Below are positions 5,751 to 39,053 of a DNA stretch of 49,505 nt, one piece after another. Where the stretch lies: assembly GCA_002050035.1 (NCBI GenBank), contig MVCR01000010.1, positions 1 through 49,505 on the forward strand. Direction: 5' to 3'. Numbering within the stretch: position 1 is the stretch's first letter; every line of letters begins with the position of its first letter. Made by a program: the position numbers and the translations under genes. The notes under the pieces are model-generated. The model was not told the origin of the DNA, did no database searches, and saw only the letters and a list, made by a program, of their open reading frames with translations. Origin of the DNA: Planctomycetales bacterium 4484_113 (GTDB taxonomy: Bacteria > 4484-113).

Positions 5751-8432
5751 ATGAGGACATTGAACTCGTTGCTGGGCATCGTGGCGACCATAGTTCTGAT
5801 GACGGCATGCGGAGGCGGAGATGACACTACAGTGCCACCTCCGCCTGCTGGCGCTGTTGGCGGCGAAGTGCTGATCTCATCCTTCGTCGCCTCGCCATTG
5901 TCTGGCCCCAGTCCGCTCGGAGTCAACTTCAGTGTGACCGTGGCCGGAGGTAAGCTTCCGATGACCTACCTCTGGGATTTCAATAACGACGGTTCCTACG
6001 ACTACGCGATCAACAGTATCGGATCTCGTACTGCCCAGGCGTATCATCAGTTTTTTCTGCGATCGGAAGATGTCACTGAAGGTATCTCTACCTACGAGGC
6101 CGTGGTGAAGGTAGTTGACGACGATAACGTGGTGAAGGTCAGCGACCCGCGCACGATCACCGTGACCGGGGAGAATCCTTTCCAGCTAGATGTGCGTGTC
6201 GTTTCAGACTACATAACCAATATCAGCGATTCCGGTGCCGAGTACGGCTATCTCTCAGGTAAGCCTGTGTACTTCCGCGTGGACGTAATACCTATGGGCG
6301 CGGATTCGGGACCTTACACGTTCGCGTGGGACTTCGATGGTGATGGCACGACTGATTCAACCCTGCAGAACGCGCAATACACCTTCACCTTGGTGGGGGA
6401 TGAGGAGACCATGGAGTTCCGCCCGCATCTTCTTGTGACCGATGCGAACGGCATACGGGTTTCTTGGGAACCTCCGGCAACGGTGACCTACACGGTCACG
6501 CGTGATATCCCGCTACCCGTGGAACCGGGCGTGCCCGAGCTTATCGTCAACACCTCGCCACCGACCCACAGCGGCGACGTCATATACGTGTACTACGACA
6601 CAACGAGTGAGAATGCGGAGGAGCGCGAGCCGCATCTCAGTGCCAGTGCAACGGTGGACGTTGCCCATCCGGGGGTTCCACCGTACGAGTATGATTGGGA
6701 TTTCACTACTGACGGCGTAGTTGATCGTCGCACGCCGGCTGTTGCGGTTCCGTATTTCGATCCTGACCTTGATGTGGTGGTCAACCCGTATCGTCTTCCC
6801 ACCGGTCAAGCCAACGGCACCTTCACGCTCTCCCTTCACTTCAAGGACGCTGCAGGGAATAAGATCGATCGTGTGTGGAAGGTCGAAGTCGTGGATCGGG
6901 CTTATGTTCACGTGATCAACCCGCTGGACGTAACAGTCTATGTAGACCTTGACGGCAACGAGACCTTCGACACTACCTCCGGGACGCCTCTGGATGCGCA
7001 GCAGTACAGAACCGTGAACGCGGAATCGGCTAACGATAGTGAGGGGCTCATCGTAAAGGTGCGCGCTACGGCTACTGGCTCTACCAACAAGTACAACTTC
7101 CAGCTGGATATTCTGGGAAACGGGGTCTGGGCGGAGGACAGTGACGGCGACCTGATACTGGATTGGGATCCTCTGCACAGCGGAACCAGAACGCCGGTTG
7201 ACCTTGATCCAGATGACGAGTCGGATCAGGATGCAACGGTCGAGCTTGGCAGCGTAGCCGGCATTGAGAACAATCAGGTTACCTACACCATTCACTTTCC
7301 CGGCACACGGTTGCCCGGCTTCTTCGGAATGCAGCTCCGGACGGCAGCCATGGAGGGTGGTCTGGAGAAGGGGACACTGATCAAGCAGATCCCCATCTCC
7401 CTGGTAGTCATAAACCCCCGGGATTTCACTGACGGCAGTGACGAGCCAATTCCAAGAGTTGATTTCGGAATGGTGGGCGTGGGAGTTGCCGGCAACGACC
7501 GGTATGCCTTCATTGCTGGTGGTATGGATGGGAATCTCGCGCTGCGCGATGTCCAAATGATTACACAGCCCTACAACGTTGATGATGGCATATACGATGT
7601 GGAGTACGAGCTTACAAACCTGCCACCAATGATGGTGGCTCGCGGTCAGTTCGGGTTGGGCGCGACCACTCTATCCGCCGATACTATCTACGCGCTGGGT
7701 GGCTACAACAACACTGACAAGACGCTCTCGATCATCGAGTCCTATGGTGGCGGGCATCCGTGGCAGGGCGAAGGTACTATTCGCAACAACGACACCAGGA
7801 TGCGCTACTTCAGTCTGGCCTCCGGTGTATCCTACGGTGGAACACCGGTGATAATGCTTTCGGGCGGTCTTGTTGGAAACCCAGACCGTGAAACCGTGTC
7901 CAGCACTGTGTGGAGATACACCCCCCCCAACGGCTGGGCCAGCCTCTACTCACCGATGCCGACTCCTCGCTATGACTGCGCATCTGTGATTGCCACAATG
8001 GGCAATTACATCTACCTCTATGTGATCGGAGGTCGTAGCATCGAGGGTTCAAGCCTGCGGACTGTCGAGCGGCTGAATCTGAACACCGGCGGCTGGGAGG
8101 CGCTTCCGGATATGCACGCGCCGCGAGCTGGTACCGGTGCGGTCGTCATCAACGGTCGCATCTACGTCTTTGGCGGTGAGGTGTATCCTGCTGGTGGAGC
8201 CGGTGTGCCCACCCTGGTGGCTTCGACCGAAGTTTACAACCCGGTGCGTGGAATCTGGAGTTACTCGGTCCCTGCTGTCACCGGTGCAGGAGTGGCTCGG
8301 TTCGGCATCTGCTCCTTCCCCAGCTGGGCTGGCAGTCCTCCTGATACGGTGTGGATTTACGGCGGAAGAACGGAAACTGGCGTTAGCACGCAGCTCGTGG
8401 AGCTGTTCTACGAGGACCAGAAGAACCTCTGA
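5751..8432 (+). CDS. Surface lipoprotein, PKD repeats + C-terminal Kelch beta-propeller
   Basis: GAGGAGG Shine-Dalgarno. Lipoprotein signal MRTLNSLLGIVATIVLMTAC. PKD signatures MTYLWDFNNDG, YTFAWDFDGDG, YEYDWDFTTDG. Kelch blades FIAGGMDGN, IYALGGYNNTD, YVIGGRSIEGSS, IYVFGGEV, WIYGGRTETG. Confidence 0.85.
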   Translation: MRTLNSLLGIVATIVLMTACGGGDDTTVPPPPAGAVGGEVLISSFVASPLSGPSPLGVNFSVTVAGGKLPMTYLWDFNNDGSYDYAINSIGSRTAQAYHQFFLRSEDVTEGISTYEAVVKVVDDDNVVKVSDPRTITVTGENPFQLDVRVVSDYITNISDSGAEYGYLSGKPVYFRVDVIPMGADSGPYTFAWDFDGDGTTDSTLQNAQYTFTLVGDEETMEFRPHLLVTDANGIRVSWEPPATVTYTVTRDIPLPVEPGVPELIVNTSPPTHSGDVIYVYYDTTSENAEEREPHLSASATVDVAHPGVPPYEYDWDFTTDGVVDRRTPAVAVPYFDPDLDVVVNPYRLPTGQANGTFTLSLHFKDAAGNKIDRVWKVEVVDRAYVHVINPLDVTVYVDLDGNETFDTTSGTPLDAQQYRTVNAESANDSEGLIVKVRATATGSTNKYNFQLDILGNGVWAEDSDGDLILDWDPLHSGTRTPVDLDPDDESDQDATVELGSVAGIENNQVTYTIHFPGTRLPGFFGMQLRTAAMEGGLEKGTLIKQIPISLVVINPRDFTDGSDEPIPRVDFGMVGVGVAGNDRYAFIAGGMDGNLALRDVQMITQPYNVDDGIYDVEYELTNLPPMMVARGQFGLGATTLSADTIYALGGYNNTDKTLSIIESYGGGHPWQGEGTIRNNDTRMRYFSLASGVSYGGTPVIMLSGGLVGNPDRETVSSTVWRYTPPNGWASLYSPMPTPRYDCASVIATMGNYIYLYVIGGRSIEGSSLRTVERLNLNTGGWEALPDMHAPRAGTGAVVINGRIYVFGGEVYPAGGAGVPTLVASTEVYNPVRGIWSYSVPAVTGAGVARFGICSFPSWAGSPPDTVWIYGGRTETGVSTQLVELFYEDQKNL

Positions 8433-8574: not shown

Positions 8575-9180
8575 TTAGACTAGTTCTGCGAGCTCATCCG
8601 CCATCCGGTGCAGGTAGGCATCTTCGGGCGCGGCTTGGAGTCCCTTCTGGGCACGCTCCTTCGCAAGCTCCCACCTTTCCTGGCGCAGGGCTAGCTTCAC
8701 GGCGAGTCTCCAGGGCGCTGGCAAGTGGGGAATCAGAGCGAGCGCGCGATCGAGGTGGAACTCCGCGTCTGTCCAGTAGCCCTTCTGTGCTGAGGACAGT
8801 GCGAGGTTGAAGTGCTCCATGCCTCTTCGCTGGATGCCGTGCAACTCCGCGATTTCCTCCTCTAGTTCCCGTCGCTGCTCGCTCCCGTGGGGCAGTGCTT
8901 CTGCAAGCTGCGCCGCTTCCTCAAAGCGGTGCTGGTAGAGCGCCGCGCGCGCGGAAATGAAGACGGCTTCCTCTTCGAACTCCGGGTTGGTGCGACGAAG
9001 TTCTTCGACCAGTCCCCTCGCATGTTCGAAGTTATGCCGTGTGACTGCTTCCATCGCCTGCGTCGCAAGGCGGTTCGCCCGCTCGTAGAGAGCGTAGTAG
9101 GTGGTCAGGGAGGTGCCGCAACTGGGGCATTCCGCAGGACGGTCTGCCAGGGGCGTGTGGCATACGGGACATGCTGTCAT
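8575..9180 (-). CDS. Zinc-ribbon + TPR-like helical protein (last gene of the Hsp70 module)
   Basis: N-terminal MTACPVCHTPLADRPAECPSCGTSL supplies two CxxC pairs. The rest is helical repeats with a TPR-like A/L/E-rich pattern. I chose ATG 9180. An alternative TTG at 9225 would overlap the Hsp70 stop as TTGA. Confidence 0.65.
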   Translation of the reverse strand: MTACPVCHTPLADRPAECPSCGTSLTTYYALYERANRLATQAMEAVTRHNFEHARGLVEELRRTNPEFEEEAVFISARAALYQHRFEEAAQLAEALPHGSEQRRELEEEIAELHGIQRRGMEHFNLALSSAQKGYWTDAEFHLDRALALIPHLPAPWRLAVKLALRQERWELAKERAQKGLQAAPEDAYLHRMADELAELV

Positions 9181-9221
9181 CTCACGATAGTGCAACTTGT
9201 CGTCCCGATCCGTATTCCGCT

Positions 9222-10970
9222 TCAATACGAGTAGTCGGCAATGAGGTTGGTGGCTTTCTCAATCAAGCCCTCGAGCGCCTCCAGTTCCTCTTCCTTAAGC
9301 GCTTGCTTGAACTGATTGGCCAGGTCACCCAGTTTCGCCAGCTCGAGGTCATCGATCCGCTTCTCTTTCTTCTCCCCTTGTCGGATGAGCTGCAGCAGTT
9401 CTTTGAGTGTGTTCTCGGCTTCCAGCAAAACCTTGGACTTCTCGCGTTGCACGAGCATACTTCCGGTGTACTTGCTCACGTCCCGCTGGGCAAGAGTTAC
9501 CTCTTCAGCAGACAGTCGTTTCTTCGATGCCTTGATGGTGATGGATCGACTGGCGCCGGTCTTGCGATCCTTCGCCGTGATCTTCACAATGCCGTTGACG
9601 TCGTAATCGAAGGAGACCTCCACGAGTGATTCGCCCTTTGGCGCTGGCGTAATACCGCTAAGGATGAACTCCCCGAGTGATTCGTTTTCGCTTGCCACTT
9701 GGCTCTCGCCTTGAAGCACATGAATCAACGCTTCAGTCTGGAAGTCGGTGGTGGTGCGGTAGAGGCTCTTGCGCGAGCAAGGGATGGCGGTGTTGCGTGG
9801 AATGACCGTGCTAAACTTGTCGCCCTCGGTTTCGATGCCGAGCGTAAAGGGAGCGACGTCGACGACTACGAATTCCTCGAGTGAGCCGCGTTTGATCCCA
9901 GCCTGGATGGCTGCGCCGATGGCTACGCACTCTTCCGGATTGATGTCCTTCAGCGGGTCCTTATCGAGCTGCTCACGCACCAGTCGCTGCACCAGAGGGG
10001 TGCGCGTCATGCCTCCCACCAGAATGACCGCGTCGATGTCCCCTGGACTCAGATTAGCATCTGAAAGCGCGAGCTGTATGGGTTGTTCGGTTTGCGAGAC
10101 CAGATCCGTAACCAGCTCCTCGTACTTGGCGCGAGTGAGCACCTCATGCAGATGCAGTGGTTCCTCCGCCTCGGTGTAGATGAAAGGCAGGTTAATCTCC
10201 GTTTCCAGAAGCGATGAAAGGTCGATCTTCGCGTTTTCCGCCGCCTCCTTCAGGCGCTGAAGAATCGCCCGTTGCTGAGAGACGTCCGGGATGTTCCGCA
10301 GGTCGATCTTCTCTTTTTCCTTGAAGCGAGCCGCGAGATAATCGACGATGCGGTAGTCGAAATCGTCGCCACCCAAGTTATTGTTGCCGGTAGTGGCAAG
10401 AACCTTGAAGGCTCCTTCGACCAGCCGAATGATCGAGACATCGAAAGTGCCGCCGCCGAGGTCATAGACTAGGATGGTCTTCGCCTCGCCGGTCTTGTCG
10501 AAGCCGTAGGCGAGGGCGGCTGCGGTGGGCTCGTTAATGATGCGTTCCACCTTGAATCCCGCAATCTCGCCGGCGTCCTTGGTCGCCTGCCGCTGGGCAT
10601 CAGTGAAGTATGCCGGCACCGTTATTACGGCTTCGTCAACGACGCTGCCCAGGTAGGTTTCGGCATCGAGCTTGAGCTTCTTCAGGATGACGGCGGATAT
10701 CTCCTGCGGCGTGAATTCCTTCTCGCCGACAACGATGCGGCGGTCAGTGCCCATCAGCCGTTTGACGCTGGTCACTGTACGCTCGGGATTGGCGACCGCC
10801 TGGTTCTTTGCCGGTTCGCCCACCAGAAGCTCACCGGTTTCAGTGAAGCCAACTATAGAGGGTGTGAGGAACTTCCCTCGTTCGTTGGGCATGAGTTGCG
10901 GCTTACCGTCAATAATGGCAGCCACTTCGGAATTCGTCGTTCCGAGATCAATTCCTACAATCTGACCCAT
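9222..10970 (-). CDS. Hsp70-family ATPase (DnaK paralogue, short lid)
   Basis: 582 aa. Motifs MGQIVGIDLGTTNS, ITVPAYFTDAQRQATKDAG, ERIINEPTAAALAYG, VYDLGGGTFDVSII, ILVGGMTRTPLV. Interdomain linker FVVVDVAPFTLGIE, followed by a beta-sandwich substrate domain and a shortened helical lid. GGGAGAG Shine-Dalgarno upstream. Confidence 0.92.
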   Translation of the reverse strand: MGQIVGIDLGTTNSEVAAIIDGKPQLMPNERGKFLTPSIVGFTETGELLVGEPAKNQAVANPERTVTSVKRLMGTDRRIVVGEKEFTPQEISAVILKKLKLDAETYLGSVVDEAVITVPAYFTDAQRQATKDAGEIAGFKVERIINEPTAAALAYGFDKTGEAKTILVYDLGGGTFDVSIIRLVEGAFKVLATTGNNNLGGDDFDYRIVDYLAARFKEKEKIDLRNIPDVSQQRAILQRLKEAAENAKIDLSSLLETEINLPFIYTEAEEPLHLHEVLTRAKYEELVTDLVSQTEQPIQLALSDANLSPGDIDAVILVGGMTRTPLVQRLVREQLDKDPLKDINPEECVAIGAAIQAGIKRGSLEEFVVVDVAPFTLGIETEGDKFSTVIPRNTAIPCSRKSLYRTTTDFQTEALIHVLQGESQVASENESLGEFILSGITPAPKGESLVEVSFDYDVNGIVKITAKDRKTGASRSITIKASKKRLSAEEVTLAQRDVSKYTGSMLVQREKSKVLLEAENTLKELLQLIRQGEKKEKRIDDLELAKLGDLANQFKQALKEEELEALEGLIEKATNLIADYSY

Positions 10971-11012
10971 AATCTCTCCCTAATGATGACAAGTCAATGA
11001 TGTTAATATGAA

Positions 11013-11678
11013 TCACGGGTTCTTCACCACCACCACCTGTGCGGGGCGAAGCACCTTGCCGTGCTGCTTGTAGCCGGCGAGCACAATCTGGGCAATAGTC
11101 CCGTTGGGTTTTTCTGGATCCGTCACCGTTGACAGCGCCAGGTGCTGCGCTGGATCGAACCGCTCTCCCGGCTCCATGCGCTCGATGCCGAAGCGCGCTA
11201 ACCGCGAGAGCAACTGATCGCGAATGGAGCGGACGCCTGTCAGTACGCTCTCGGGGACTTTAGCCGATTCGTCCTCAGCGAGAGCCACCACCCGATCGCA
11301 GGAGTCAGCAACATCCAGCAATCCTTCCAGCGCTGATTTCAAAGGTTCGATGGTTGCCAGCTCACTCAGTCCTTTGGCAACCGAGTGCAACTCCCGCTTG
11401 AGTGCGGATAGCTCGGCCGCATACTCATCAAGACCTACCGCCTCAATGGCTGGCAGCCGCAGGTTCTCAACGTTGCGCTGCAGGCGAAAGAACTCGATGC
11501 GCAGGCGGTTCAGCTCGGTCTGGTACGTGAGGAGGTTGAACGTTTCCGCTGCTTCCGGTTGCGCCCCGCCTGCTTGCCCCTTACCCGCTGGACCAAGCTC
11601 TATATGATAATATCTCTCGGAAGAGAAGTCAACGCGAGATGCCAGCTCCCTCAGCCGTTTTCTCGTCGACGCTCGCAT
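11013..11678 (-). CDS. grpE: GrpE-like nucleotide exchange factor
   Basis: 221 aa. A long N-terminal helix is followed by the GrpE C-terminal signature ...GIERMEPGERFDPAQHLALSTV...GTIAQIVLAGYKQHGKVLRPAQVVVV. Its ATG directly abuts the TAA of the upstream gene (11679/11678). Confidence 0.8.
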   Translation of the reverse strand: MRASTRKRLRELASRVDFSSERYYHIELGPAGKGQAGGAQPEAAETFNLLTYQTELNRLRIEFFRLQRNVENLRLPAIEAVGLDEYAAELSALKRELHSVAKGLSELATIEPLKSALEGLLDVADSCDRVVALAEDESAKVPESVLTGVRSIRDQLLSRLARFGIERMEPGERFDPAQHLALSTVTDPEKPNGTIAQIVLAGYKQHGKVLRPAQVVVVKNP

Positions 11679-14600
11679 TTAAACCACCGAAATGTCTCCC
11701 AACCGGAAGTAGAAAGTGATGCTGTCAGTCAGCTTGGCAAGGCTTTCTTCTGGTGGTGTTTCCATCTGTTTCAACTGGCTGTAGTCCGGGCCTGGGACTC
11801 GGAGATTCAATCCAAGTTCCTCAAAAACCGATCTCGCCCGCTGCTCTCCGAGGACTGTTCTGCGCACCTCATCTGCGTCCACGGGGTTGAACGCGAAGAT
11901 GTCTATCCGCTCTCGCTTCTTGTCGTTGGTGAGGTTGGCGTAAGAGTCCTCCAGCAGCATGAAGTCGGCTGCGTGTCGTTCGGGATTGAATATCTTCACC
12001 AGTCGGAAGTAGCTCTTCTCAATCTGTCCCTTAGTGGCACGCTTGTCCAGACCCAGAATCCAGTAGAACTGATTTGCTCGCTGGAAGTAGTCCACCATCT
12101 CTTCGGTCTTCGCAGTGTAGACATCTTCGGTTTCCTGGCGTTGGGCGACGAAAACATCAGTGAGCAGCTTCTCCACCTCCCCGATGGCGACCGTCAAATG
12201 GGCGTACTGCTGGGGATTCCTATCCACCATCTGCTGCCAGTGGGTCGTGAGTTTGTTCCAGTAGACTGCCGAATTGTCGAAATCGTCCACCATCATGTAG
12301 GCGATGGCGAGATTCTGCACTATGCTGGGGTTGTCGGGATCGTAACTTGCGGCTTTTTCCCATTCACCTATGGCGGATGTGTGATTGCCCTTCCGCGAAA
12401 GGGTGTAGGCGTTAAGGTCAAGTGTCGCGGCGTACAGTTTTCTCAGATGCTTGAAGTCAGGCGCGAGCTCCTTCAGTGTTTCCCATGTTTCCATCGCCTC
12501 CTGAGCATATCCGGCTTGCAGGAAGGCAGTGCCGATGTCGAGGAGCTGTGAAATCTTGGTCTCAGTATGAGTTGGGCGTTTCAGGCAGGCTTCGAGGAGC
12601 TGGCGCCAGTATGCCACCGCCAGTTCGCGGTCGCCCTTGAGGGAAGATGCCTTTCCCATGAACCACAGCCGCTGCAACTCTTGCTTCTGAGTGCCAGCAA
12701 GCTTGCTCAGGAGGGCGAGAGCGCGGTCGTACTGGCCGTCGTGGATGAAAAGGGCCGCAAACGGGAGGAGTGCCTTGTCCTGCTCTGGGAAAGTGAGGTT
12801 GGCGAATGCTCCTCCGCCCGCTGCATCGCGATCCGCCAGGAAAGCGTTGATCAGCAGGGGGATGTCGTCCGGCAGCAGGTTGCCTCGCCGTTTCAGATCC
12901 AGGAATACGCGCCATGCTCTCTCCAGCTGTTTGTCCGCCAGGTAGCAGTACGCTTGGCTACGTTCCAGCATCGGCGCGTCATCAGACCAAGTGATATCAC
13001 GATAGTAGATGAGTGCTGGCGCATACTTGTGCAGGAGGTGGTAGGAGTACGCCAGATATATCTTGGTCTCGATGTTCCGTGGCAGTATCCGGTGAGCGGT
13101 TTCCAGTATCTGCGCCGCCATCTCGTAGTTGCCGTCGAAGAAGAAAGTCTGCGCGTAGTAATGAAGGATGTCCACCAGGACAGTCCGGAGCAGCCGATCC
13201 TCACGGTTCACGTCCACCGCTTCGAGCGAGTCTCCGAGTGCCTTGGTCCAGTCACCTTCGGCTGCGGCTCTGCACACGTCCACAGCCAGGATGTAGGAGA
13301 AATTGCGCTGTTCCGCCCGCCCGCTGGGATTCTCGCGATAGACCTCGGCAAGCTGCTCGCGCGCCTGTTCCTGCTCGCCTGCGCGCCAGTGCGCCAGTCC
13401 GATCTGTATCTTCAACCAGCGGTGGAAAGCGCGGCTTTCTTCGTCCGAAAGCACCTCTCGATAGAGCTCTATCGCCTGATGGAACTCGCCAGCCAGTTCT
13501 GCGTTCAGCCCCTGACGCAGTCGCAGGAGGTATCCGGGGATAGAATCGCTTTCCGCCTGCAGTTCCTGCAGCAGCGGGCCAGCTTTCTTTGGCTTCATCT
13601 CCTGCTGGAGCGCCGCTACCTGCCAGTAGCGGACCCGCGGCTCGAGTTCAGGCGCGCGGATCTCGGAGAACATCTTGGTTGCTTCTTCGGTCTTCCCTTC
13701 AGTGAGTAGGATCTTGGCGAGCTGGTAGGTGTTCTCCTCGGAAGGCTCATACTCATTGGCGAGCTCGAACACGCGCGCCGCCTGCTGATAATTGTGACGC
13801 TCAAGATAGAAGCGTCCAACGTCTTGCAGAAGCGCCAGCTGACCTGCGCTGTTAAGCTCCTCTGCCAGCGCTTCTGGCTTAAGCTCAAAGCACCTGATTA
13901 CCAGATGCAGACGATACTTGTAATCAGGATTTACGGTCAGCACCTGATGCAGCAAGAAGAAAGCTATCTTCTCAGGGCAATTGAACTTCTCGAACTCGAA
14001 GCGGCGGTAGCAGAGCTCCAGCTTCAGCTCCGGATCAAATGTGAATCCCTCGGGTGGAGAGATCGCCACATCGGAAAGGACACTGATAAGGCGGATATTC
14101 TCTTCGCGTTCTTCAATGCTCTTGCGATAGAGTTCCAGATAAACTTCAATCGCGGACGGGTCGCGCCGGTCGAGTCTGAGGTAGCATTTGGTGCGAGCAT
14201 CGAGCAGCGCTTCGTGCGCGGGGCCGGAGACCGTGGGTAAAGCCACTTCGATGAACTCAAGCGTCTTGCGGTCGAAGTTGCCATTCTCGATTCGATGCTC
14301 GGCCAACAGGCGGGCGATCTGCCGCCTGAGAGCATCTTCCTCCACCATCGGATATGCGCGCTCATAGATGGCAAACGCCTTGGGCTGCCTGGTGTCGTAG
14401 GTCAGGTAGCTGGCAGCCAGCAGTGGCATTACCTGGGTGAACTCCGGGTCATAGGAAAGGGCGTCCTCGTATATCTTCTGCGCCTGCTCATCGGTGCGCT
14501 TCTTCTCCAGGTAGCTTTCGGAAAGCAGGTAGTATATGCGCGGTTGCTTTCGCTCCGGCCAGGAACTCAAATACTGCTCGTAAACCCGGCAGGCGAAGTC

Positions 14601-15653
14601 GTCCCGGCGATCCTCGCCAAGGAAATGCTCGGCGAGGAGCAGTGTGATGCGCTTCGTGAGCAGGTTGTTCTTCAGTGCTTCTTCGTATGCCGTTAGCGCT
14701 TCTTCGCTGAAATTGCCCTCTTCGGCGAAAGCAAGTGCCAGGAACGCCAGCACGTTCTTATTGAAGTAGCCAGCGCGGTAGATCGCCAGCAGGAGATCCT
14801 TCTTGTTGAGGAATTCCTTCCGCGTTCGCAGGAGGTAGGCGCTGAACTGTTCCAGATACTCGCGCCCCAGCAGACCCAGGCGCAGCGCGTCCTCTATGTA
14901 GCCTATTGTCTTCGGCGTGATATCCTTCTTCTCAATGTAGTACTCTGCAAGCAATCTCAACGCCTGTTCATGCTCGATGCCACGGTCGAGGCACTCCTTA
15001 TACACCTGCGCGGCGAACTCGCTTCGTTCATTGTTCACCACCAGATGTTCAAGCAGAATGCCGGCAAGCTTCATATCATCCTTGCGCGTGGGGTAGGCGA
15101 TGCGATAGACCGAGATGGCCTCGGCGTCCCTTCGGTTTGCCTCAAGGAACTCCTCAGCCAGCAGCGTGCTTCCTCCCTTCCAGAGCGTGAAGGCTTTGGT
15201 TGCCGCCAGTACAATGTGGTGCTCGGCTTCTGTGAGCCTGCGCTCTCTCTGCGTCACCAGCCTCTTGGCGTAAGTGAGCAAGAATCCGCGTTCGGTTTCG
15301 GTTTCTTCTGCCAGCAGGCTGACTATCTCCGTGGCTTCAGGAGTAAGCAGGTCTTCTGCGTCAATGAAGGCTATGGCTTCACGCAGAATGTGCTCATCCG
15401 GCTTGATCTGGTGGCACTTAAGGACGGTTCGGAGTGCTTCCGGCTTCTTCTGTCCTATCTGGGCGCGAGCGAGAAGGGTATAGTACTCCGCATACTCATC
15501 GCGTCGGGACTCATCAATTGGCTCGGCGTAATCCTGAGCCATCTTGAGAAGAACCCGCTCTGCATCTGCAGGACGACCGCGACTGAGCAAGTCAGCGGCG
15601 CGCTTCAAGCCCTTTTGGGTCTTCTTACCAGTGAAAAGTTGTATGATGCTCAT
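11679..15653 (-). CDS. Giant all-helical TPR-like repeat protein with a C-terminal J-like domain (HPD replaced by NPE)
   Basis: 1324 aa. Most of the length consists of TPR/Sel1-like helical hairpins with Y/A/L-rich 34-residue periodicity. Residues near the C-terminus, FYWILGLDKRATKGQIEKSYFRLVKIFNPERHAADFMLLEDSYANLTNDKKRERIDIF, align by eye with J-domain helices I-III. It has no G/F region and no CxxCxGxG zinc finger. Confidence 0.8.
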   Translation of the reverse strand: MSIIQLFTGKKTQKGLKRAADLLSRGRPADAERVLLKMAQDYAEPIDESRRDEYAEYYTLLARAQIGQKKPEALRTVLKCHQIKPDEHILREAIAFIDAEDLLTPEATEIVSLLAEETETERGFLLTYAKRLVTQRERRLTEAEHHIVLAATKAFTLWKGGSTLLAEEFLEANRRDAEAISVYRIAYPTRKDDMKLAGILLEHLVVNNERSEFAAQVYKECLDRGIEHEQALRLLAEYYIEKKDITPKTIGYIEDALRLGLLGREYLEQFSAYLLRTRKEFLNKKDLLLAIYRAGYFNKNVLAFLALAFAEEGNFSEEALTAYEEALKNNLLTKRITLLLAEHFLGEDRRDDFACRVYEQYLSSWPERKQPRIYYLLSESYLEKKRTDEQAQKIYEDALSYDPEFTQVMPLLAASYLTYDTRQPKAFAIYERAYPMVEEDALRRQIARLLAEHRIENGNFDRKTLEFIEVALPTVSGPAHEALLDARTKCYLRLDRRDPSAIEVYLELYRKSIEEREENIRLISVLSDVAISPPEGFTFDPELKLELCYRRFEFEKFNCPEKIAFFLLHQVLTVNPDYKYRLHLVIRCFELKPEALAEELNSAGQLALLQDVGRFYLERHNYQQAARVFELANEYEPSEENTYQLAKILLTEGKTEEATKMFSEIRAPELEPRVRYWQVAALQQEMKPKKAGPLLQELQAESDSIPGYLLRLRQGLNAELAGEFHQAIELYREVLSDEESRAFHRWLKIQIGLAHWRAGEQEQAREQLAEVYRENPSGRAEQRNFSYILAVDVCRAAAEGDWTKALGDSLEAVDVNREDRLLRTVLVDILHYYAQTFFFDGNYEMAAQILETAHRILPRNIETKIYLAYSYHLLHKYAPALIYYRDITWSDDAPMLERSQAYCYLADKQLERAWRVFLDLKRRGNLLPDDIPLLINAFLADRDAAGGGAFANLTFPEQDKALLPFAALFIHDGQYDRALALLSKLAGTQKQELQRLWFMGKASSLKGDRELAVAYWRQLLEACLKRPTHTETKISQLLDIGTAFLQAGYAQEAMETWETLKELAPDFKHLRKLYAATLDLNAYTLSRKGNHTSAIGEWEKAASYDPDNPSIVQNLAIAYMMVDDFDNSAVYWNKLTTHWQQMVDRNPQQYAHLTVAIGEVEKLLTDVFVAQRQETEDVYTAKTEEMVDYFQRANQFYWILGLDKRATKGQIEKSYFRLVKIFNPERHAADFMLLEDSYANLTNDKKRERIDIFAFNPVDADEVRRTVLGEQRARSVFEELGLNLRVPGPDYSQLKQMETPPEESLAKLTDSITFYFRLGDISVV

Positions 15654-15683
15654 CGCCCGCCGGTTCCACCCCTGCCTGTTGCC

Positions 15684-15692
15684 ATTATAACA
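15684..15692 (-). promoter_or_regulatory. Extended -10 promoter (TGTTATAAT) of the Hsp70 module
   Basis: The reverse complement of 15684-15692 is TGTTATAAT. It ends 30 nt upstream of ATG 15653, inside the 109-bp gap that follows the toastrack gene. Confidence 0.55.
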
Positions 15693-15762: not shown

Positions 15763-16767
15763 TCAGGGCTCGAAGGAAAGTGAAATCGAGCTCAATGCTC
15801 CTTCTATTGTAACCTTCGCATGCGGCTTCTGGCGGTTATAGCTGGCGCTTTCCCAGTGGTCGTCTTGCCGGGTGAGTCCTGCCTCTGCGAAATTGGCGGC
15901 GGAAAGTGCGGATGTTGATTCCAGATAGAGCGGCGTATCCTGCGGGAAGCGGATGCGCACACTCGCCGCCCCAGAACTGATTCCCACGCGATAACCGGAG
16001 TCTCCGACTTCCGGGAGGGCGATGTCCACGGAAGCCGCTCCCCCGTTGATCTGCAGCGACCTGAGAAGGGTATGCGTCAGCCTGGCATCCACCCGCGAAG
16101 CTCCTGCGTTGAGCTCAAGATCAAGGGGAAGATCCGATGGGAGATGGACAGTCATCTCCTGCTTTCCCGGGAAGGGATGAGCGAGCGAGGTGGAAACGCT
16201 TTCCCGCTGCGGAATCTCCACGTACGCTGTACTGCCCTTCACCTTCATTGATACTTCCGGTTCTCCCCGTGAAGTAAGGTAGTCGATCTCGGCAACGCAG
16301 TCCGAATCCGCCACCATCGAATCGATGACAACCACCGCTGCGCCAGCGTCTACTTGGGCGACCAGCTCGGCCACACCCTCCTCTCGCTCGAGGAGGTAGT
16401 GGTAATTTCTCAACTCAGCCGAGCCCTCTAAGCGTGGTGTGGTAACTAAGCGACCGCTCTGCAGCATCGTGAAAGTGGGCCACATTGGCTTTCCCACAAG
16501 TACCCACGCAAACGCTACGACGAGAATGATGGGAGTTACATAGACCAGAAACTGCAGAGGGGTCCGGCGCACCAGGATGTTGAGACCCCAGATGATGAGG
16601 AGAATCGGCCAGAGTCTTAAAAGCTCGTACCAGATGGCTGAGCTGAAATAGCCCAGGTTGATTCCCAGCCAGGTAACTCCGACCAGGATAATCAGCGTTC
16701 CCCAGAATAGGCTCTCGCCGTGCGATCGCACCCGTCTGTAATGGTGTTCTGGATCTAGGTGGTTCAT
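15763..16767 (-). CDS. LiaF/toastrack (DUF4097/DUF2154-like) membrane protein
   Basis: I chose the start at MNHLDPEHHY (ATG 16767), which forms an ATGA overlap with the PspC stop. The longer track ORF, reaching 17031, overlaps pspC and was not used. It has four N-terminal TM helices. The C-terminal repeats LNAGASRVDARL, INGGAASVDIAL, ISSGAASVRIRF and IEGALSSISLSF are typical of the toastrack beta-helix. Confidence 0.75.
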   Translation of the reverse strand: MNHLDPEHHYRRVRSHGESLFWGTLIILVGVTWLGINLGYFSSAIWYELLRLWPILLIIWGLNILVRRTPLQFLVYVTPIILVVAFAWVLVGKPMWPTFTMLQSGRLVTTPRLEGSAELRNYHYLLEREEGVAELVAQVDAGAAVVVIDSMVADSDCVAEIDYLTSRGEPEVSMKVKGSTAYVEIPQRESVSTSLAHPFPGKQEMTVHLPSDLPLDLELNAGASRVDARLTHTLLRSLQINGGAASVDIALPEVGDSGYRVGISSGAASVRIRFPQDTPLYLESTSALSAANFAEAGLTRQDDHWESASYNRQKPHAKVTIEGALSSISLSFEP

Positions 16768-17201
16768 TTCTCGTCCCTCCGTTCGGAAGAGTTGTGCGGG
16801 AGCTTGCCGGCAACCAGCAGAATCCCCAGCACCAGAAGTGCCACCGGCGCGATAAGTCCTGTGGCCGCGCGCAGCCAGCTTTCTCCGAGCAGGAAGATGG
16901 TCCCCAGCACGATGAGCAGGACACCCCAGAATACTCCTGCGCTGATGTGAACACCACGGGACTCCGGATGATAGGTTTCTGCATCTCCTCTGGCGGCTAT
17001 CGCCCAAGGTTCGCCTGGTATGATGACCCATGCAAGCAGGTAAAGCAGCGCAAAGACCGTGGGACTAACCACGACCATTACCAGCCAGATAACGCGCAGT
17101 ATATTCGGGTCGAAGCCGAAGTGGCGGGCCAGTCCGCCGCACACGCCACCCAGCCATCGGTTACTGCGGGACCGATACAGTTTTTCGCTCTGTGTCTTCA
17201 T
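16764..17201 (-). CDS. PspC-domain membrane protein
   Basis: 145 aa. KLYRSRSNRWLGGVCGGLARHFGFDPNILRVIWLVMVV matches the PspC domain signature. Additional TM helices follow. Confidence 0.85.
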   Translation of the reverse strand: MKTQSEKLYRSRSNRWLGGVCGGLARHFGFDPNILRVIWLVMVVVSPTVFALLYLLAWVIIPGEPWAIAARGDAETYHPESRGVHISAGVFWGVLLIVLGTIFLLGESWLRAATGLIAPVALLVLGILLVAGKLPHNSSERRDEK

Positions 17202-17202
17202 A

Positions 17203-18432
17203 TCAAACCAGCTTCAGCTCGAAGTTCGCCGCGTTGTTACTCACTTGCAGCTTCAATCTGCGGTCGCTGCTTTCGTATCCCTGTGAGATGTAGCGTTCGT
17301 CTTCCCTGTGGATGGGGAAGTCGGTCAGGTTGTGATGGCCCAGGTGATTAACGACCTGGGCATCGAAGGCGAATCCCTCCGGTGCCTGTAGCTCCAGCTT
17401 GGCAGCGTTGTTCATCAGGTTCATCGTCACTTCCGGGAGCCGCTCCCCGAGGCGAATCTGCGTATGCGCGGCGTTGTTCTCTAGATGCACTTCCTCCACC
17501 GCGAGTTCCGTGAGTTCAAGCTCGCACTTGGCGGCATTTGCCTCCACATCCAGTGCCAGCGGCAACTGGCGATTGAGTCGCACTTCCCACACACTGCCGG
17601 CGAGGATGGGCAGACGTGAGCTCACGTGTTCAGCGATGACTCGCAGATGGGCGACCTTCTTGCCGTCCCGCTCGGAGACCTGCAGCTCGAAACGCGGCTC
17701 GCAGCTCCCTCGATCGGTGATGATTTCGATTAGCCTGTCGGTAGTGCCGGCAACTTTCATCCTTCCGGCGCTCAGGTGCAGTTCGTAGCGAAGGCGGTCC
17801 ACATCCGCCGGCAGGTTTACGGAGAAGTGCCCTCGACCATCCTTGTAGCTCGCATCTAGGGGGATCCTCTCAGCCGTAGCATGCGCTTCCTCTGATCCTT
17901 CCTCCACATCGGGAGGTGTGGGCTCCTCTTCGGATGATTCGCCGCCTGCTCGCTCAGTTGGCGCGGGTGTCTCGTGGGAAATGGGTGCGGTTGAATCGTT
18001 CACCCTAGAAGCCGCTTCGGCCCTCACGCCCTCGTCATCCTTGACTGCGTGAGCCGTTCTCCCTTCAGCCTTAATGGTCACGCTGGCGGCGCCCTCAGGT
18101 GAGGAGACCACGTGCAACCTCTCTCTCTCGTGCGTTGCCTGAGTAACACCGAGTATCAGGAAGATACCGAGGATGATGAGCAGCAGCGGCCAGAAGTCAC
18201 CGAGCCGTCCCAATGGTGGCAATGGCAGCAGGTTGTCCGCCAGCAGAATGATGCCTACCAGCATCATCCCTACCGCGTAGGCGGTGCGCTCGCTATCCAG
18301 CAGGATGACGCCATACAGCACGAGCAGAATGGGCCAGTAGACCGCGAGCGCCAGGGCGCTGCCGAAGAGGTATGCCGAAAGACTCAGCACACCGATGACG
18401 ATAAGGAGAATCCCCAGGGAAACTCGGTTCAT
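17203..18432 (-). CDS. LiaF-like membrane protein with acidic linker and C-terminal toastrack domain
   Basis: 409 aa. Four TM helices at the N-terminus (LGILLIVIGVLSL...), an E/P/S-rich linker, then repeats ANAAKCELELT, NNAAHTQIRL, NNAAKLELQAP, NNAANFELKLV. ATGA overlap with the upstream gene (18429-18432). Confidence 0.75.
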   Translation of the reverse strand: MNRVSLGILLIVIGVLSLSAYLFGSALALAVYWPILLVLYGVILLDSERTAYAVGMMLVGIILLADNLLPLPPLGRLGDFWPLLLIILGIFLILGVTQATHERERLHVVSSPEGAASVTIKAEGRTAHAVKDDEGVRAEAASRVNDSTAPISHETPAPTERAGGESSEEEPTPPDVEEGSEEAHATAERIPLDASYKDGRGHFSVNLPADVDRLRYELHLSAGRMKVAGTTDRLIEIITDRGSCEPRFELQVSERDGKKVAHLRVIAEHVSSRLPILAGSVWEVRLNRQLPLALDVEANAAKCELELTELAVEEVHLENNAAHTQIRLGERLPEVTMNLMNNAAKLELQAPEGFAFDAQVVNHLGHHNLTDFPIHREDERYISQGYESSDRRLKLQVSNNAANFELKLV

Positions 18433-19214
18433 CTTCCTCCTCCTTTGGCGCGGCTGGCTCTATCGTCCGCCGCGTCTGCGTCTTCACTTGGGGCTAACCT
18501 CTGTAGCAGCCGACCACGCGTGCTGAGCATCCGCACTTCGCCGGTAACATCCTCCACAATGAGCTCCCATTCCTGTGTCGAAAGGATCAAGTTCCCGTCG
18601 TCTCTCCGGAGCGAGATTCCACCTTTGCGACGGGTAACGGCATCATATCCTTCCTTCGTGGGCCGCAGGGTGATGCCATAAGGCTCCTCCAGGGTCAGCT
18701 CCGATATGTCCTCGGGCAGCGCGAGTCGTGCGCTATCAGAAGTGGTGCGGAAGGCTATCACGGCTCGAGCAGGGCTCGTCAGGGTCACAACCACTCCCTC
18801 TCCGTGCTTGGAGCGTGCTGTTTCCACGCGCACTTGCCGCTGCCGCCCGGCCCAGCTCAAGACGAGATGGGGTGGAGGTGCTTCGATTTCTACTTCCTGC
18901 GTAGCCTCGCTTAGGACGAGCACATGCACCGTGCTGCGTAGCGACGACTTCCCGCCGCCCTCGCGCTTCAGTTGCGGCGTTACCTCCTCCGGTTCTATGA
19001 GGCGCCAGGCATCACCCGGCTGCTCGCGGCTCCGTTCCTTCTGGCGCTTCGCGCCATGCTGTCCAATCCGGATCTGGACGCTATTGCTGGGCGATCGTGA
19101 AATTCCATAGCGGGCATAGTGCAGTTGCTGCCCCCCGCTCAGATGAGCACACCGGTTAACGAGCAGCCCGACAAGAAGAATCAGCATCAAGCCGAACATC
19201 TCTCTCACAGTCAT
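18429..19214 (-). CDS. Single-pass membrane protein of unknown function
   Basis: 261 aa. N-terminal TM anchor MFGLMLILLVGLLV, then a charged beta-rich domain in which I recognise no motif. ATGA overlaps at both ends place it in the operon. Confidence 0.55.
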   Translation of the reverse strand: MTVREMFGLMLILLVGLLVNRCAHLSGGQQLHYARYGISRSPSNSVQIRIGQHGAKRQKERSREQPGDAWRLIEPEEVTPQLKREGGGKSSLRSTVHVLVLSEATQEVEIEAPPPHLVLSWAGRQRQVRVETARSKHGEGVVVTLTSPARAVIAFRTTSDSARLALPEDISELTLEEPYGITLRPTKEGYDAVTRRKGGISLRRDDGNLILSTQEWELIVEDVTGEVRMLSTRGRLLQRLAPSEDADAADDRASRAKGGGR

Positions 19215-19768
19215 ACTCCGTCCTCCTTTCGGTCCCTTCGCGTGTGGTACCAGACGAGAAACGCGCCCAGAGCCACGGTGGAAACCGAGAGTATCAGGTC
19301 AGAGCCCTTCGCCGGCAGATAGCGTCCGAGCTGCCCCAGGAAGAGGGTCATTACTCCGATGATAACCAGCAGCATCCCGAGAAACCACTGGAAATCCAAC
19401 TGGCGTGCTGACTTCGATTCCTCTTGCACTAAGGGGGAGAAGTAATCCCAAATGCTGAGGACGTATGCCAACGGCTGGAAGAAAGGACTGCCGGCATCAA
19501 GTGCTACTAGGAAATAGACGAGTAGGAAAGCGCCCTTGTACATCTGCCCGCGCAGAAGTTGCGCCAGTCCCGGGATCAAGAGCCCGATCCAAGTCGGTCC
19601 CTCCTTCTGCGCTGCCCCTTCAATCGGTCTCCTCGCATCATGTCGGGCACAGCGCGGGCACAGATGGCGCTCTCCTTGCTGGATCACACATTGGCTGCAG
19701 AGCGGCTTTCCGCAAACGCTGCACTTGAAGGTGGCCTCGGTTTCCGGATGATAGAAGCATCTGGCCAT
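19211..19768 (-). CDS. B-box-type zinc-finger membrane protein
   Basis: 185 aa. The N-terminal CFYHPETEATFKCSVCGKPLCSQCV...HLCPRC is a B-box-like Cys/His cluster. Three or four TM helices follow, including LIPGLAQLLRGQMYKG. Its ATG directly abuts the upstream TAG. Confidence 0.65.
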   Translation of the reverse strand: MARCFYHPETEATFKCSVCGKPLCSQCVIQQGERHLCPRCARHDARRPIEGAAQKEGPTWIGLLIPGLAQLLRGQMYKGAFLLVYFLVALDAGSPFFQPLAYVLSIWDYFSPLVQEESKSARQLDFQWFLGMLLVIIGVMTLFLGQLGRYLPAKGSDLILSVSTVALGAFLVWYHTRRDRKEDGV

Positions 19769-20356
19769 CTACAGCATTCCCCCAGGTGCGTCGGCGAAGT
19801 AATGTTCATCCTCGGCATCCACCTTCACCGCCGTATCGTCACTGCTCGCGGAATCTCTCTCTCGATGTTCTGGCGAGAGTGAGTCCGCTGAAGAGCCGTC
19901 GGCTGTACCTACGCTCCGGGTCAACGCCCGCAGCCCCTCACGTGCTTCCTTCTGCAGTTCGGTAACCTTCTGCTCGGTTCGGTTGAGGAAGCGCGACAGC
20001 GCAGGCTCATACCGCGAAAACAGTGCGAGTATGAGAATGATCAGCACGAGACTCGCCGCGAAGGCGTAACGGGGAGCGAGCACCCATCGCTCTGCCAGTC
20101 GCTCCCACCAGTTGGCTTCATAGCTGCGCTGCCGCAGCTTGTGGAAAAGTCGCGCGTTCAGTACCGGTTCGTCTGGCGGAAGCTGTCCCAGTGTCTTCCT
20201 CGTGACCTGTCGGAGCCGCTGTAGCTCGGTGAAATACTCCTCCGCTTCCTGTGAGGACGATAGCAGATCGGACACTTTGCGCGTGCTCTCCAGATCCAGT
20301 GCATCGTCGGCGTACTGGGAAATCAGATCCTTAAGTATTGAGCTGAGCAACGCCAT
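19769..20356 (-). CDS. Membrane-anchored anti-sigma factor (non-zinc type)
   Basis: N-terminus MALLSSILKDLISQYADDALDLESTRKVSDLLSSSQEAEEYFTELQRLRQV fits the anti-sigma N-domain pattern without the Cys/His ligands. One TM helix (AFAASLVLIILILALF), then an acidic tail. I used ATG 20356; the track ORF starts at a TTG at 20368. Confidence 0.65.
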   Translation of the reverse strand: MALLSSILKDLISQYADDALDLESTRKVSDLLSSSQEAEEYFTELQRLRQVTRKTLGQLPPDEPVLNARLFHKLRQRSYEANWWERLAERWVLAPRYAFAASLVLIILILALFSRYEPALSRFLNRTEQKVTELQKEAREGLRALTRSVGTADGSSADSLSPEHRERDSASSDDTAVKVDAEDEHYFADAPGGML

Positions 20357-20609
20357 CACCTCCAGCAAAGCACAGAGCCAAGGAATCGTTGTGCTCCATA
20401 GCCGCCAGCACGTGTTCCAGCCATTTGGCGCGAGCGTGCGACAATCCCGCTACGATTGGCCGCAGCCGCTGCAACTGAGCAAGGTAGGCTTCCGCTTCCG
20501 GCGACCTTGCCATCAAATCCGCCACTCTGCGCGCCAGGTCTCGGTCGAGGACGTTATCTGCGTACTGCGATATCAGCTCTCTTAGTCGCGCGTTAAGCAA
20601 GGCTATCAC
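20331..20609 (-). CDS. Soluble anti-sigma-like N-domain paralogue
   Basis: 92 aa with a GTG start. (V)IALLNARLRELISQYADNVLDRDLARRVADLMARSPEAEAYLAQLQRLRPIV parallels the N-domain of the next gene. It has no TM segment. It overlaps the sigma gene by 17 nt and the next gene by 26-38 nt. Confidence 0.5.
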   Translation of the reverse strand: MIALLNARLRELISQYADNVLDRDLARRVADLMARSPEAEAYLAQLQRLRPIVAGLSHARAKWLEHVLAAMEHNDSLALCFAGGDGVAQLNT

Positions 20610-21057
20610 CTCCGGTGAGACACATGTTCAAGAGCTCTTCATCTTCCAGCACCGCACGGTCGCGGAGACCGGACGGCAGTTCGTCTAGGAGTCCCGTGAG
20701 TACGCCTCGCAGCTCTTCCATTCCCCGCTCCTGCTCTCGGACCGGCAGGTTGTGCAGGTCTGAACCGTCACCGGTTGAGGCTCTGCGCTCGCGCTGTAAT
20801 TTCCGCTCCAGCATCCGGCATTCGTTTACGAGAATGCGCACCATCCAGGGGTAGAACCGCTCGCGGTCCCGAAGCCGGTTCAGGCTGCGAAACACCTTGT
20901 AGTAGGTCTCCTGCAACACGTCTTCAACCCAGTGCCTTTCTCGCAGGTTAGCGGCTGCGATGCGCCTGAGCCGTCCGCTGGTCAAGCGGATCAGCTCCTG
21001 CCAGGCAGTATCGTTCCCGGCCATACATCCCAGAAGTAGCGATGACGGTATCTCCAC
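20593..21057 (-). CDS. ECF-type sigma-70 family factor, apparently short at the C-terminus
   Basis: 154 aa. Sigma-2 region WVEDVLQETYYKVFRSLNRLRDRERFYPWMVRILVNECRMLERK. Sigma-4 begins at LLDELPSGLRDRAVL, but the ORF ends 17 residues later. The start is GTG 21057, with an alternative ATG at 21024. Confidence 0.7.
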   Translation of the reverse strand: MEIPSSLLLGCMAGNDTAWQELIRLTSGRLRRIAAANLRERHWVEDVLQETYYKVFRSLNRLRDRERFYPWMVRILVNECRMLERKLQRERRASTGDGSDLHNLPVREQERGMEELRGVLTGLLDELPSGLRDRAVLEDEELLNMCLTGGDSLA

Positions 21058-23641: not shown

Positions 23642-23646
23642 CAGCT

Positions 23647-39030: not shown

Positions 39031-39053
39031 CAATAGCGTCCTGCCGGACCGAC

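Follow-up and report, generated by a model that had tools for sequence, protein, structure and literature searches.

In the 49,505-nucleotide stretch of Planctomycetales bacterium 4484_113 analysed here (contig MVCR01000010.1, hereafter the window), four tightly packed genes on the (−) strand (8575–15653) encode a 1324-residue tetratricopeptide repeat (TPR) protein with a C-terminal J-like domain, labelled TPRJ in this work, a GrpE, an Hsp70 and a zinc-ribbon/TPR protein. We interpret this locus, with moderate confidence, as the principal grpE–dnaK operon of its lineage, which holds two accessory co-chaperone-like genes, those of TPRJ and the zinc-ribbon/TPR protein, in one unit. It is the context of the genes that points to the Hsp70 as the principal DnaK.

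The four-gene unit and its genomic settings

An earlier note, made from the sequence alone, had described four co-directional open reading frames (ORFs) and their junctions, and all of them were found on the (−) strand (Table 1). The ATG of grpE abuts the stop codon of the TPRJ gene, a 42-nucleotide gap precedes the Hsp70 gene, and the zinc-ribbon/TPR gene starts either in a TTGA overlap with the Hsp70 gene or 41 nucleotides downstream of it (ATG at 9180). The extended −10 promoter that the note had assigned to the module, TGTTATAAT, was likewise seen and is kept in relatives: TGnTATAAT stands 24–39 nucleotides upstream of the TPRJ start codon in all genomes of the window's clade (8/8) and also in the related loci L023 and L027, and in several genomes it directly follows a terminator hairpin. 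A generic sigma-70 −35/−10 scan of the window did not report TGTTATAAT because the element has no −35 match; the counts of the generic sigma-70 and terminator scan did not rise above chance. The four genes are a conserved, tightly coupled unit with a TGnTATAAT element of its own, whose conservation supports a putative independent promoter for the module.

The order TPRJ–grpE–hsp70–Zn/TPR recurs in 18 species of the Genome Taxonomy Database (GTDB) and in several metagenome contigs, down to a TPRJ identity of 32–39%. These 18 species, found in a GTDB scan with TPRJ, are uncultured metagenome-assembled genomes titled 'UBP7', 'UBP7_A', 'Planctomycetales bacterium' or 'bacterium'. In a tblastn map, the four genes are present in every locus long enough to hold the module. 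The neighbourhood, for which the earlier note had proposed a check of conservation across genomes, is therefore kept across the whole lineage, and judged by these gene maps the arrangement of the four genes is not due to chance.

The surroundings of the module vary between clades. In the window's clade (TPRJ 56–61% identical), it lies behind a sigma-70-r2/LiaF-TM operon. In a second, sister clade (TPRJ 39% identical), the genes hrcA–dnaJ–TPRJ–grpE–hsp70–Zn/TPR share one strand, and five further metagenome contigs agree with this order; the DnaJ encoded there is a canonical class A protein, in which the HPD tripeptide and the G/F region are present and CxxCxGxG occurs three or four times. In a third clade (L017 and L023), groEL–groES is divergent from the TPRJ gene, and in L027 the module follows an SRP54-like gene. 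Every related locus has grpE directly upstream of the Hsp70 gene. In about 19 loci hrcA is followed directly by dnaJ, never with a grpE–dnaK pair of its own; one of the loci with hrcA–dnaJ, L037, has no module within 9 kb.

Compared with the housekeeping hrcA–grpE–dnaK–dnaJ operon of the Firmicutes type, which is exemplified by the unrelated reference locus L047 (lepA–hemN–hrcA–grpE–dnaK–dnaJ), the module shares the position of grpE directly upstream of a DnaK-type Hsp70 gene and, in sister clades, the adjacency of hrcA, class A dnaJ or groESL, with a repeat resembling the controlling inverted repeat of chaperone expression (CIRCE) near groES. Unlike the housekeeping operon, it has two extra genes, no canonical CIRCE upstream, and the order hrcA–dnaJ–[TPRJ]–grpE–dnaK–[Zn/TPR] or, in the window, TPRJ–grpE–dnaK–Zn/TPR behind the sigma/LiaF operon. 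The orders hrcA–grpE–dnaK–dnaJ and hrcA–dnaJ–[TPRJ]–grpE–dnaK would most simply be related by a local rearrangement.

The Hsp70 itself is of the DnaK type. It scores 628 bits with Pfam HSP70, contains the motifs IDLGTTNS, DLGGGTFD and NEPTAAALAYG, and has all ATPase, linker, substrate-binding and lid elements; R167, Q378, P419 and D477 are conserved. Its best match in the Protein Data Bank (PDB) is Geobacillus DnaK (549 bits, ~60% identity over residues 1–497), and its orthologues are named 'molecular chaperone DnaK' by NCBI. Against NCBIfam, it reaches 692.3 with the DnaK model NF001413 (cut-off 648), 678.1 with TIGR02350 (cut-off 822.55) and 485 with the HscA models. The ATPase motifs and the length of 582 residues had been read correctly in the earlier note, but the lid is not shortened as was claimed there: the Pfam HSP70 profile is covered up to position 588 of 599, which leaves the lid essentially complete, and what the protein lacks is mainly the disordered C-terminal tail. 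Between two genomes in which EF-P is 66% identical, the Hsp70 is 83.5% and TPRJ 61% identical. The effective number of codons of the Hsp70 gene (45.0), taken as a proxy for expression, is not distinctive within the window. The GrpE scores 101.4 bits with Pfam GrpE (PF01025; gathering score 25.8) over profile positions 50–165 and has the C-terminal β domain, and its N-terminal 100 residues are divergent. From the adjacency of grpE we infer that the Hsp70 is GrpE-dependent. Pfam thus bore out the domain calls made previously (HSP70, GrpE, TPR and zinc ribbon).

We take the Hsp70 and GrpE to be the main pair of the lineage because hrcA–dnaJ or groESL adjoins them in sister clades (that is, in relatives, not in the window), because hrcA–dnaJ never has its own grpE–dnaK, because the Hsp70 is so much more conserved than EF-P and passes NF001413, and because GrpE is retained, whereas the specialised Hsp70s HscA and HscC have lost their dependence on a nucleotide-exchange factor (NEF) (PMC8215388). 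The same chaperone-gene context favours an outcome that the earlier note had named as contrary to its own proposal of a dedicated chaperone machine, namely that this is the only Hsp70/GrpE pair of the genome and hence the housekeeping one. Neither the 49.5 kb of the window nor the related loci L001–L046, which are mostly module and hrcA regions, contain a second Hsp70.

Table 1. Positions of the module genes and of elements within and before them, in window coordinates
Feature	Position	Strand	Basis
TPRJ, cytoplasmic TPR solenoid with C-terminal J-like domain and conserved tail, 1324 aa	11679..15653	-	ORF, Pfam
J-like domain of TPRJ, aa 1190–1256	11886..12086	-	Translation, Pfam, AF2
NPE tripeptide of TPRJ, at the HPD position	11979..11987	-	J-domain alignment
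GrpE nucleotide-exchange factor, 221 aa	11013..11678	-	Pfam GrpE
DnaK-type Hsp70 of a distinct short subfamily, 582 aa	9222..10970	-	Pfam HSP70
Zinc-ribbon (CPxC...CPxC) and TPR protein, 216 aa	8575..9225	-	Pfam; 201 aa with the alternative ATG at 9180
Extended −10 promoter-like element TGTTATAAT	15684..15692	-	Read directly; 30 nt before the TPRJ start

The J-like domain, its docking surface and the zinc-ribbon/TPR protein

TPRJ matches many TPR families of Pfam and, at residues 1196–1251, the DnaJ family (33.1 bits, gathering score 27.8). It has no G/F region and no CxxCxGxG finger, in agreement with the earlier description of a TPR solenoid partner that is not a DnaJ. A word-index search found 17 TPRJ clusters, of which 16 are full-length (1314–1338 residues) and one is a 917-residue partial sequence; a HMMER search with the C-terminal 284 residues returned 15 representatives at E < 1e-30, and about 20 proteins of 1295–1334 residues (50% clustering) have the same layout. 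The J-like domain is the best conserved part of TPRJ, with 68% identity to the distant clade against 22–48% elsewhere. J domains in the PDB match it with E = 7e-5, and it aligns to those of DNAJA3 and DnaJ. In the AlphaFold2 (AF2) model of the C-terminal 284 residues, the predicted local distance difference test score (pLDDT) is ~90 over the J helices, and in Foldseek the modelled domain matches the J domain 2och (TMt 0.78, root-mean-square deviation 1.6 Å). Sequence and structure prediction agree on the four-helix J fold, and the C-terminal J-like domain that the earlier note had proposed stands on both counts. Fold searches with the models of the TPRJ C-terminal region and of the zinc-ribbon/TPR protein yielded no specific relative, only generic TPR and J matches.

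The tripeptide that defines J domains is absent. Aligned to solved J domains, TPRJ has NPE at the position of HPD, and the loop between helices II and III is six residues shorter. Among 37 family members the tripeptide is NPE in 24, DPE in six, GPE in four, SPE in two and TPE in one, and HPD in none; xPE is found in the distant TPRJ homologues too, whose C-termini read ...D[WY]xxx. The residues R22, K26, R27, K48 and K51 of E. coli DnaJ contact DnaK (PMC8215388); of these basic positions (E. coli DnaJ numbering) only R27 is kept in TPRJ, and the other four are E, F, M and E, invariant in the family. P34, R36 and Y25 are retained as well. H33 hydrogen-bonds to the carbonyl of L391 and D35 bonds to R167 and Q378, and no system tested retained ATPase stimulation once the H or the D of HPD had been replaced (PMC8215388). 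HPE variants make up ~1% of J domains, among them DjlB and DjlC (PMC10410713), so Glu may be tolerated at the third position; judged by its sequence, the critical departure of the J-like domain is the missing His. Since HPD defines the family, TPRJ falls outside the J-domain proteins and is instead a protein with a J-like domain.

The Hsp70 is altered where a J domain would bind. In DnaK, the segment 206–221 is the main J-binding region and K26–E217 a key contact. The acidic strip of DnaK (E206, D211 and E217) and its VLLL linker are absent from the window Hsp70, in which the strip reads R-L-V-E-G-A-F-K, with R206 and K217. The protein belongs to a short subfamily of 578–605 residues with VVVD instead of VLLL in the linker (EEFVVVDVAPF in the window, [DE][DE]LVVVDVAP[FY] in the subfamily) and with characteristic C-termini (...LIADYSY in the window; ...ADYSY, ...SDWG[LMV] or ...LSDADI in the subfamily). 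Unlike a housekeeping DnaK, it combines a basic strip and a VVVD linker with a C-terminus that lacks the disordered tail and is conserved as ...D[YW]xx. In the J-like domain, two of the facing positions are changed (R22E and K26F), whereas the DnaJ of the sister clade keeps K22, R26, K27 and K48.

Several of these properties speak against the assignment as principal DnaK. E206 is replaced by R, K or Q and E217 by K in 92 of the 93 members of the short subfamily; the VVVD linker is likewise shared by 92 of the 93, and the lid and tail are unusual. The basic helix II of the sister-clade DnaJ would face the now-basic Hsp70 strip, and R22E/K26F together with this strip could reflect co-adaptation with TPRJ and insulation from another DnaK. 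The NCBIfam equivalogs for GrpE all score below their cut-offs, as does TIGR02350 for the Hsp70.

Such properties would also suit a dedicated, insulated Hsp70 machine, in which the short Hsp70 and GrpE would be paralogues that act exclusively with TPRJ and the zinc-ribbon/TPR protein for a narrow set of clients, and a separate canonical DnaK, encoded elsewhere in the genome, would serve DnaJ and general proteostasis. This is possible because the subfamily is distinct, with a charge-reversed strip and an altered linker; the matching substitutions in the J-like domain, not found in the neighbouring DnaJ, point the same way. In addition, among the best 120 of 8000 Hsp70 matches, 119 belong to the short family, and a canonical-type DnaK (P0137, in L047) comes only at rank 120; its locus is unlike any locus of the window's lineage. 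Precedents exist in SglK/GrpS and in HscC with its HPE proteins DjlB and DjlC. This reading is countered by the hrcA–dnaJ genes that lie directly upstream throughout one clade with no grpE–dnaK of their own, by groESL next to the module in another, by the very strong conservation of the Hsp70 and its passing of NF001413, by the fact that the known specialised HscA and HscC dispensed with GrpE, and by TPRJ homologues located far from any grpE–hsp70 pair. We regard it as a tentative possibility only. The dedicated machine of the earlier note is weakened accordingly by the main-DnaK context, while in its favour the Hsp70 did turn out to represent a separate, short subfamily whose J-docking surface is changed.

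The two precedents resemble the module only in part. E. coli HscC is a short Hsp70 with private co-chaperone genes nearby (PMC8215388, PMC10410713), and DjlB and DjlC carry HPE and are tail-anchored (PMC10410713), as the zinc-ribbon/TPR protein appears to be in L017, L023 and L027. HscC is marked by a lost GrpE signature, deletions in the nucleotide-binding domain, an insertion in the β part of the substrate-binding domain and ~28% identity to DnaK (PMC8215388). The window Hsp70 has no such insertions or deletions relative to Geobacillus DnaK (residues 1–497), has grpE next to it, and is far closer to DnaK (~60% identity to the Geobacillus protein against 28% between DnaK and HscC; PMC8215388). 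It would keep its GrpE dependence, unlike HscC, and its J-like partner lacks the His, unlike DjlB and DjlC. In the SglK–GrpS(–SgmC) system of Myxococcus xanthus, SglK has its own GrpE homologue upstream, as the window Hsp70 does, but the system is not linked to hrcA, dnaJ or groESL.

The xPE domain might instead be a fully functional J domain, in which case TPRJ would be a large class C J-domain protein, a bacterial analogue of p58IPK/DNAJC7 that stimulates the ATPase of DnaK and delivers TPR-bound clients. The fold is predicted confidently, P34, R36, Y25 and R27 are kept, E keeps the carboxylate of D35 and occurs in the HPE domains of DjlB/DjlC, the DnaK residues R167, Q378 and P419 are conserved in the Hsp70, and p58IPK is the top Foldseek match of the C-terminal 284 residues. 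Yet that match is weak (E = 0.04, TM = 0.2), the position of the His is always taken by N, D, G, S or T, all systems that were tested lost stimulation when H33 was substituted (PMC8215388), four of the five basic contacts are lost, and the helix II–III loop is six residues shorter, all of which makes this reading improbable. DNAJC3/p58IPK and DNAJC7/TPR2 do have, like TPRJ, a J fold that comes C-terminal to a TPR array, but TPRJ is about three times larger, has xPE rather than HPD and lacks most of the basic helix-II/III contacts; nothing points to common descent rather than convergence. The likeness to these co-chaperones that the earlier note had drawn therefore holds for the architecture and for a weak top structural match, not for an HPD-bearing J domain.

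The companion claim, that no described bacterial counterpart is known, was too strong because TPR proteins with a J domain and private DnaK/GrpE pairs are both known in bacteria. Sll1384 is a cyanobacterial class C J protein with a J domain and TPRs that works with DnaK (PMC9948308), 'DnaJ-TPR' belongs to the twelve most frequent architectures of J proteins (PMC10410713), and SglK/GrpS is a private pair. Sll1384 resembles TPRJ in combining the two domains, but its J domain is N-terminal and has HPD, its C-terminal TPR region is small, and its gene is not in an operon with grpE–dnaK.

The fourth protein of the module matches TPR_2/TPR_19 of Pfam and, weakly, the zinc-ribbon families DUF2089, DZR and Zn_Ribbon_1. 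Its four cysteines are invariant, and its AF2 model (pLDDT 81.5) consists of the ribbon followed by nine helices, for which Foldseek found only generic TPR relatives. A Pfam scan of the 216-residue protein at E ≤ 0.1 gave no match to zf-DNL, the domain of the Hep1/Zim17 escort proteins. A word-index search with this protein returned only three clusters, and its spread was read from the loci: every module locus has a homologue 0–75 nucleotides behind the Hsp70 gene, and the same spacing holds for L021, where GrpE, Hsp70 and the zinc-ribbon/TPR protein occur without TPRJ and its gene still directly follows that of the Hsp70. By gene order, it is the most persistent companion of this Hsp70 subfamily. 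The C-terminus of the protein in L017, L023 and L027 is a hydrophobic helix (e.g. ...LLIVLILELVLLLTR), by which it appears to be tail-anchored in the membrane; this helix is missing from the window orthologue.

The C-terminal tails of the Hsp70 and TPRJ were also compared. In some clades both tails contain W, but the apparent co-variation breaks in one sub-clade (L009, L010, L013, L015 and L016), where TPRJ ends in ...PDGxLV and the Hsp70 in ...SDWGM, and is tentative at most. A bolder reading, which we consider unlikely, would make the short Hsp70 a fourth bacterial type beside DnaK, HscA and HscC, marked by the basic J-docking strip, the VVVD linker and the conserved acidic-aromatic C-terminus. 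In this type an HPD-less J-like domain on a 1300-residue TPR scaffold would replace HPD triggering, and the scaffold and the zinc-ribbon/TPR protein would read the tails of Hsp70 and TPRJ, as a bacterial counterpart of the EEVD–TPR wiring of eukaryotic co-chaperones, with its own GrpE and insulated from DnaK–DnaJ.

Distant TPRJ homologues occur in other contexts. In L024, L026 and L028, TPRJ is found alone, away from grpE–hsp70, and in L025 and L029 it is coupled to two small ORFs, a 616-residue PF13941 protein and a 377-residue protein. In the latter two loci (L025:8001–15589 and L029:6988–14561), the TPRJ homologue, with GPE or TPE, heads a translationally coupled operon with ORFs of 145 and ~100 residues, the PF13941 'MutL' protein (an ATPase of the actin/Hsp70 superfamily; 412 bits) and the 377-residue protein; in these operons, an ATPase that is not an Hsp70 may be the partner of the J-like TPR scaffold. 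A block consisting of DUF6754, three unannotated ORFs and a protein with an RNase_H_2 domain is shared by L021 (16732–21426), ~5 kb downstream of GrpE–Hsp70–Zn/TPR, and L025 (15579–19900), directly downstream of the TPRJ/PF13941 operon. Because the distant homologues have other contexts, we take TPRJ to be an older, autonomous factor that UBP7-like lineages recruited into their grpE–dnaK operon, and the standalone homologues would fit a factor that works with generally available DnaK.

It is very improbable that TPRJ and the zinc-ribbon/TPR protein are mere neighbours of DnaK, placed in its operon by a lineage-specific accident: distant TPRJ homologues do lie away from grpE–hsp70 (in two contigs with the PF13941 ATPase) and TPR proteins are ubiquitous, but the stop|ATG and TTGA coupling and the gene order are kept down to 32–39% identity, the domain that is conserved is a J fold in particular, and the zinc-ribbon/TPR protein tracks the Hsp70 subfamily even where TPRJ is missing. 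To our knowledge, the only known partners of J folds are Hsp70s, which also counts against such an accident.

Regulatory sites and neighbouring genes

Neither the window nor any of the loci searched contains the canonical CIRCE consensus, and a canonical CIRCE upstream of the module was rejected; the only related element is a GCAGTC-type variant, TTAGCAGTC-N9-GACTGCTAA, beside groES in L017 and L023. In these repeats GCAGTC replaces GCACTC. They read TTAGCAGTT-N9-GACTGCTAG at L017:9260–9286 and TTGGCAGTC-N9-GACTGCCAG at L023:4688–4714, and both lie in the divergent intergenic region between groES and TPRJ, 48–72 nucleotides from groES. Such a repeat may be the HrcA operator of the lineage. In L003–L005, a palindrome TTCCnGGGAA is located ~10–25 nucleotides upstream of the TPRJ start, between TGnTATAAT and the start codon; in L008 and L018 its place is taken by CGTTACGGAACG. 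The palindrome may be a hairpin of the 5′ untranslated region or an operator.

The operon upstream of the module (window 15763–21057, (−) strand) encodes an ECF-like Sigma70_r2 protein, small proteins of 199, 185 and 261 residues and two LiaF-TM proteins of 409 and 422 residues. A terminator hairpin closes this operon in several relatives, immediately ahead of the TGnTATAAT of the module. The earlier note had read it as an ECF/PspC/toastrack envelope-stress operon; it scores as Sigma70_r2 and LiaF-TM, and the link of the module to it is specific to the window's clade. Convergent to the module, an 893-residue PKD/Kelch-repeat protein is encoded at 5751–8432 on the (+) strand. In almost every locus of the two main clades, a homologue (29–44% identity) occupies this position downstream of the module, and the synteny of this gene is as persistent as the module itself. 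Further genes of the window are dnaA (37678–39060, (−) strand; Bac_DnaA 217 bits, Bac_DnaA_C 84 bits), the presence of which places the window near the chromosomal replication origin, and those for a three-subunit pyruvate:ferredoxin oxidoreductase (23638–26167). PADLOC gave no meaningful match for any of the four module proteins, and an anti-phage defence system was ruled out on this basis.

Proposed mechanism and significance

In the mechanism that would follow from a principal grpE–dnaK operon, GrpE and the Hsp70 would run an ordinary ATP/ADP cycle, and a canonical DnaJ, encoded next door in the sister clade and presumably elsewhere in the window's genome, would supply the HPD-dependent triggering of ATP hydrolysis. 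TPRJ would dock its J-like domain on the J site of the Hsp70, probably without classical triggering of hydrolysis, because HPD has become xPE and four of the five basic contacts are lost. It would then act as an adaptor or regulator, which brings DnaK to, or holds it at, whatever the ~1150-residue TPR solenoid binds. Alternatively, TPRJ could gate the access of DnaJ, much as the HPD-less Pam16 regulates Pam18 and mitochondrial Hsp70. The zinc-ribbon/TPR protein would be a second accessory factor and may position the chaperone, anchored to the membrane in some clades. It may also bind the acidic-aromatic C-terminal tails of the Hsp70 and TPRJ, as a resemblance of motifs suggests. With HPD missing in all TPRJ members and a canonical dnaJ immediately upstream in the sister clade, the self-contained Hsp70 module of the earlier note is not upheld.

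Pam16/Tim16 offers a parallel to such an arrangement in that a J fold without HPD belongs to a system that also contains an Hsp70, a NEF of the GrpE type and a J protein with a true HPD, and by analogy it suggests a regulatory rather than a stimulatory role for the J-like domain. Pam16 is a small protein that pairs with Pam18 and has no sequence relationship to TPRJ, the J-like domain of which ends a 1150-residue TPR solenoid.

In the literature searched, we found no description of a length-conserved 1300-residue TPR family with an invariant xPE J-like domain, of an operon that unites such a TPRJ with GrpE, a member of a short DnaK subfamily and a zinc-ribbon/TPR protein, or of the altered J-docking strip of this Hsp70 subfamily. 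HPD-less J-like regulators and the docking of Hsp70 by TPR proteins are regarded as eukaryotic or organellar features, and the wiring of bacterial Hsp70 networks is ascribed almost wholly to J proteins with HPD. If the locus is merely a housekeeping operon with two passengers, the finding is a modest annotation point for a candidate phylum. The locus itself brings together a length-conserved family of ~1300-residue proteins, the best conserved element of which is a J fold that never carries HPD, in an operon with GrpE and an Hsp70 of altered J-docking surface. If this J-like domain binds the Hsp70, the module would provide a simple bacterial system for what J-like domains do, for the re-coding of J–Hsp70 specificity and for the selection of Hsp70 clients by TPR scaffolds in bacteria.

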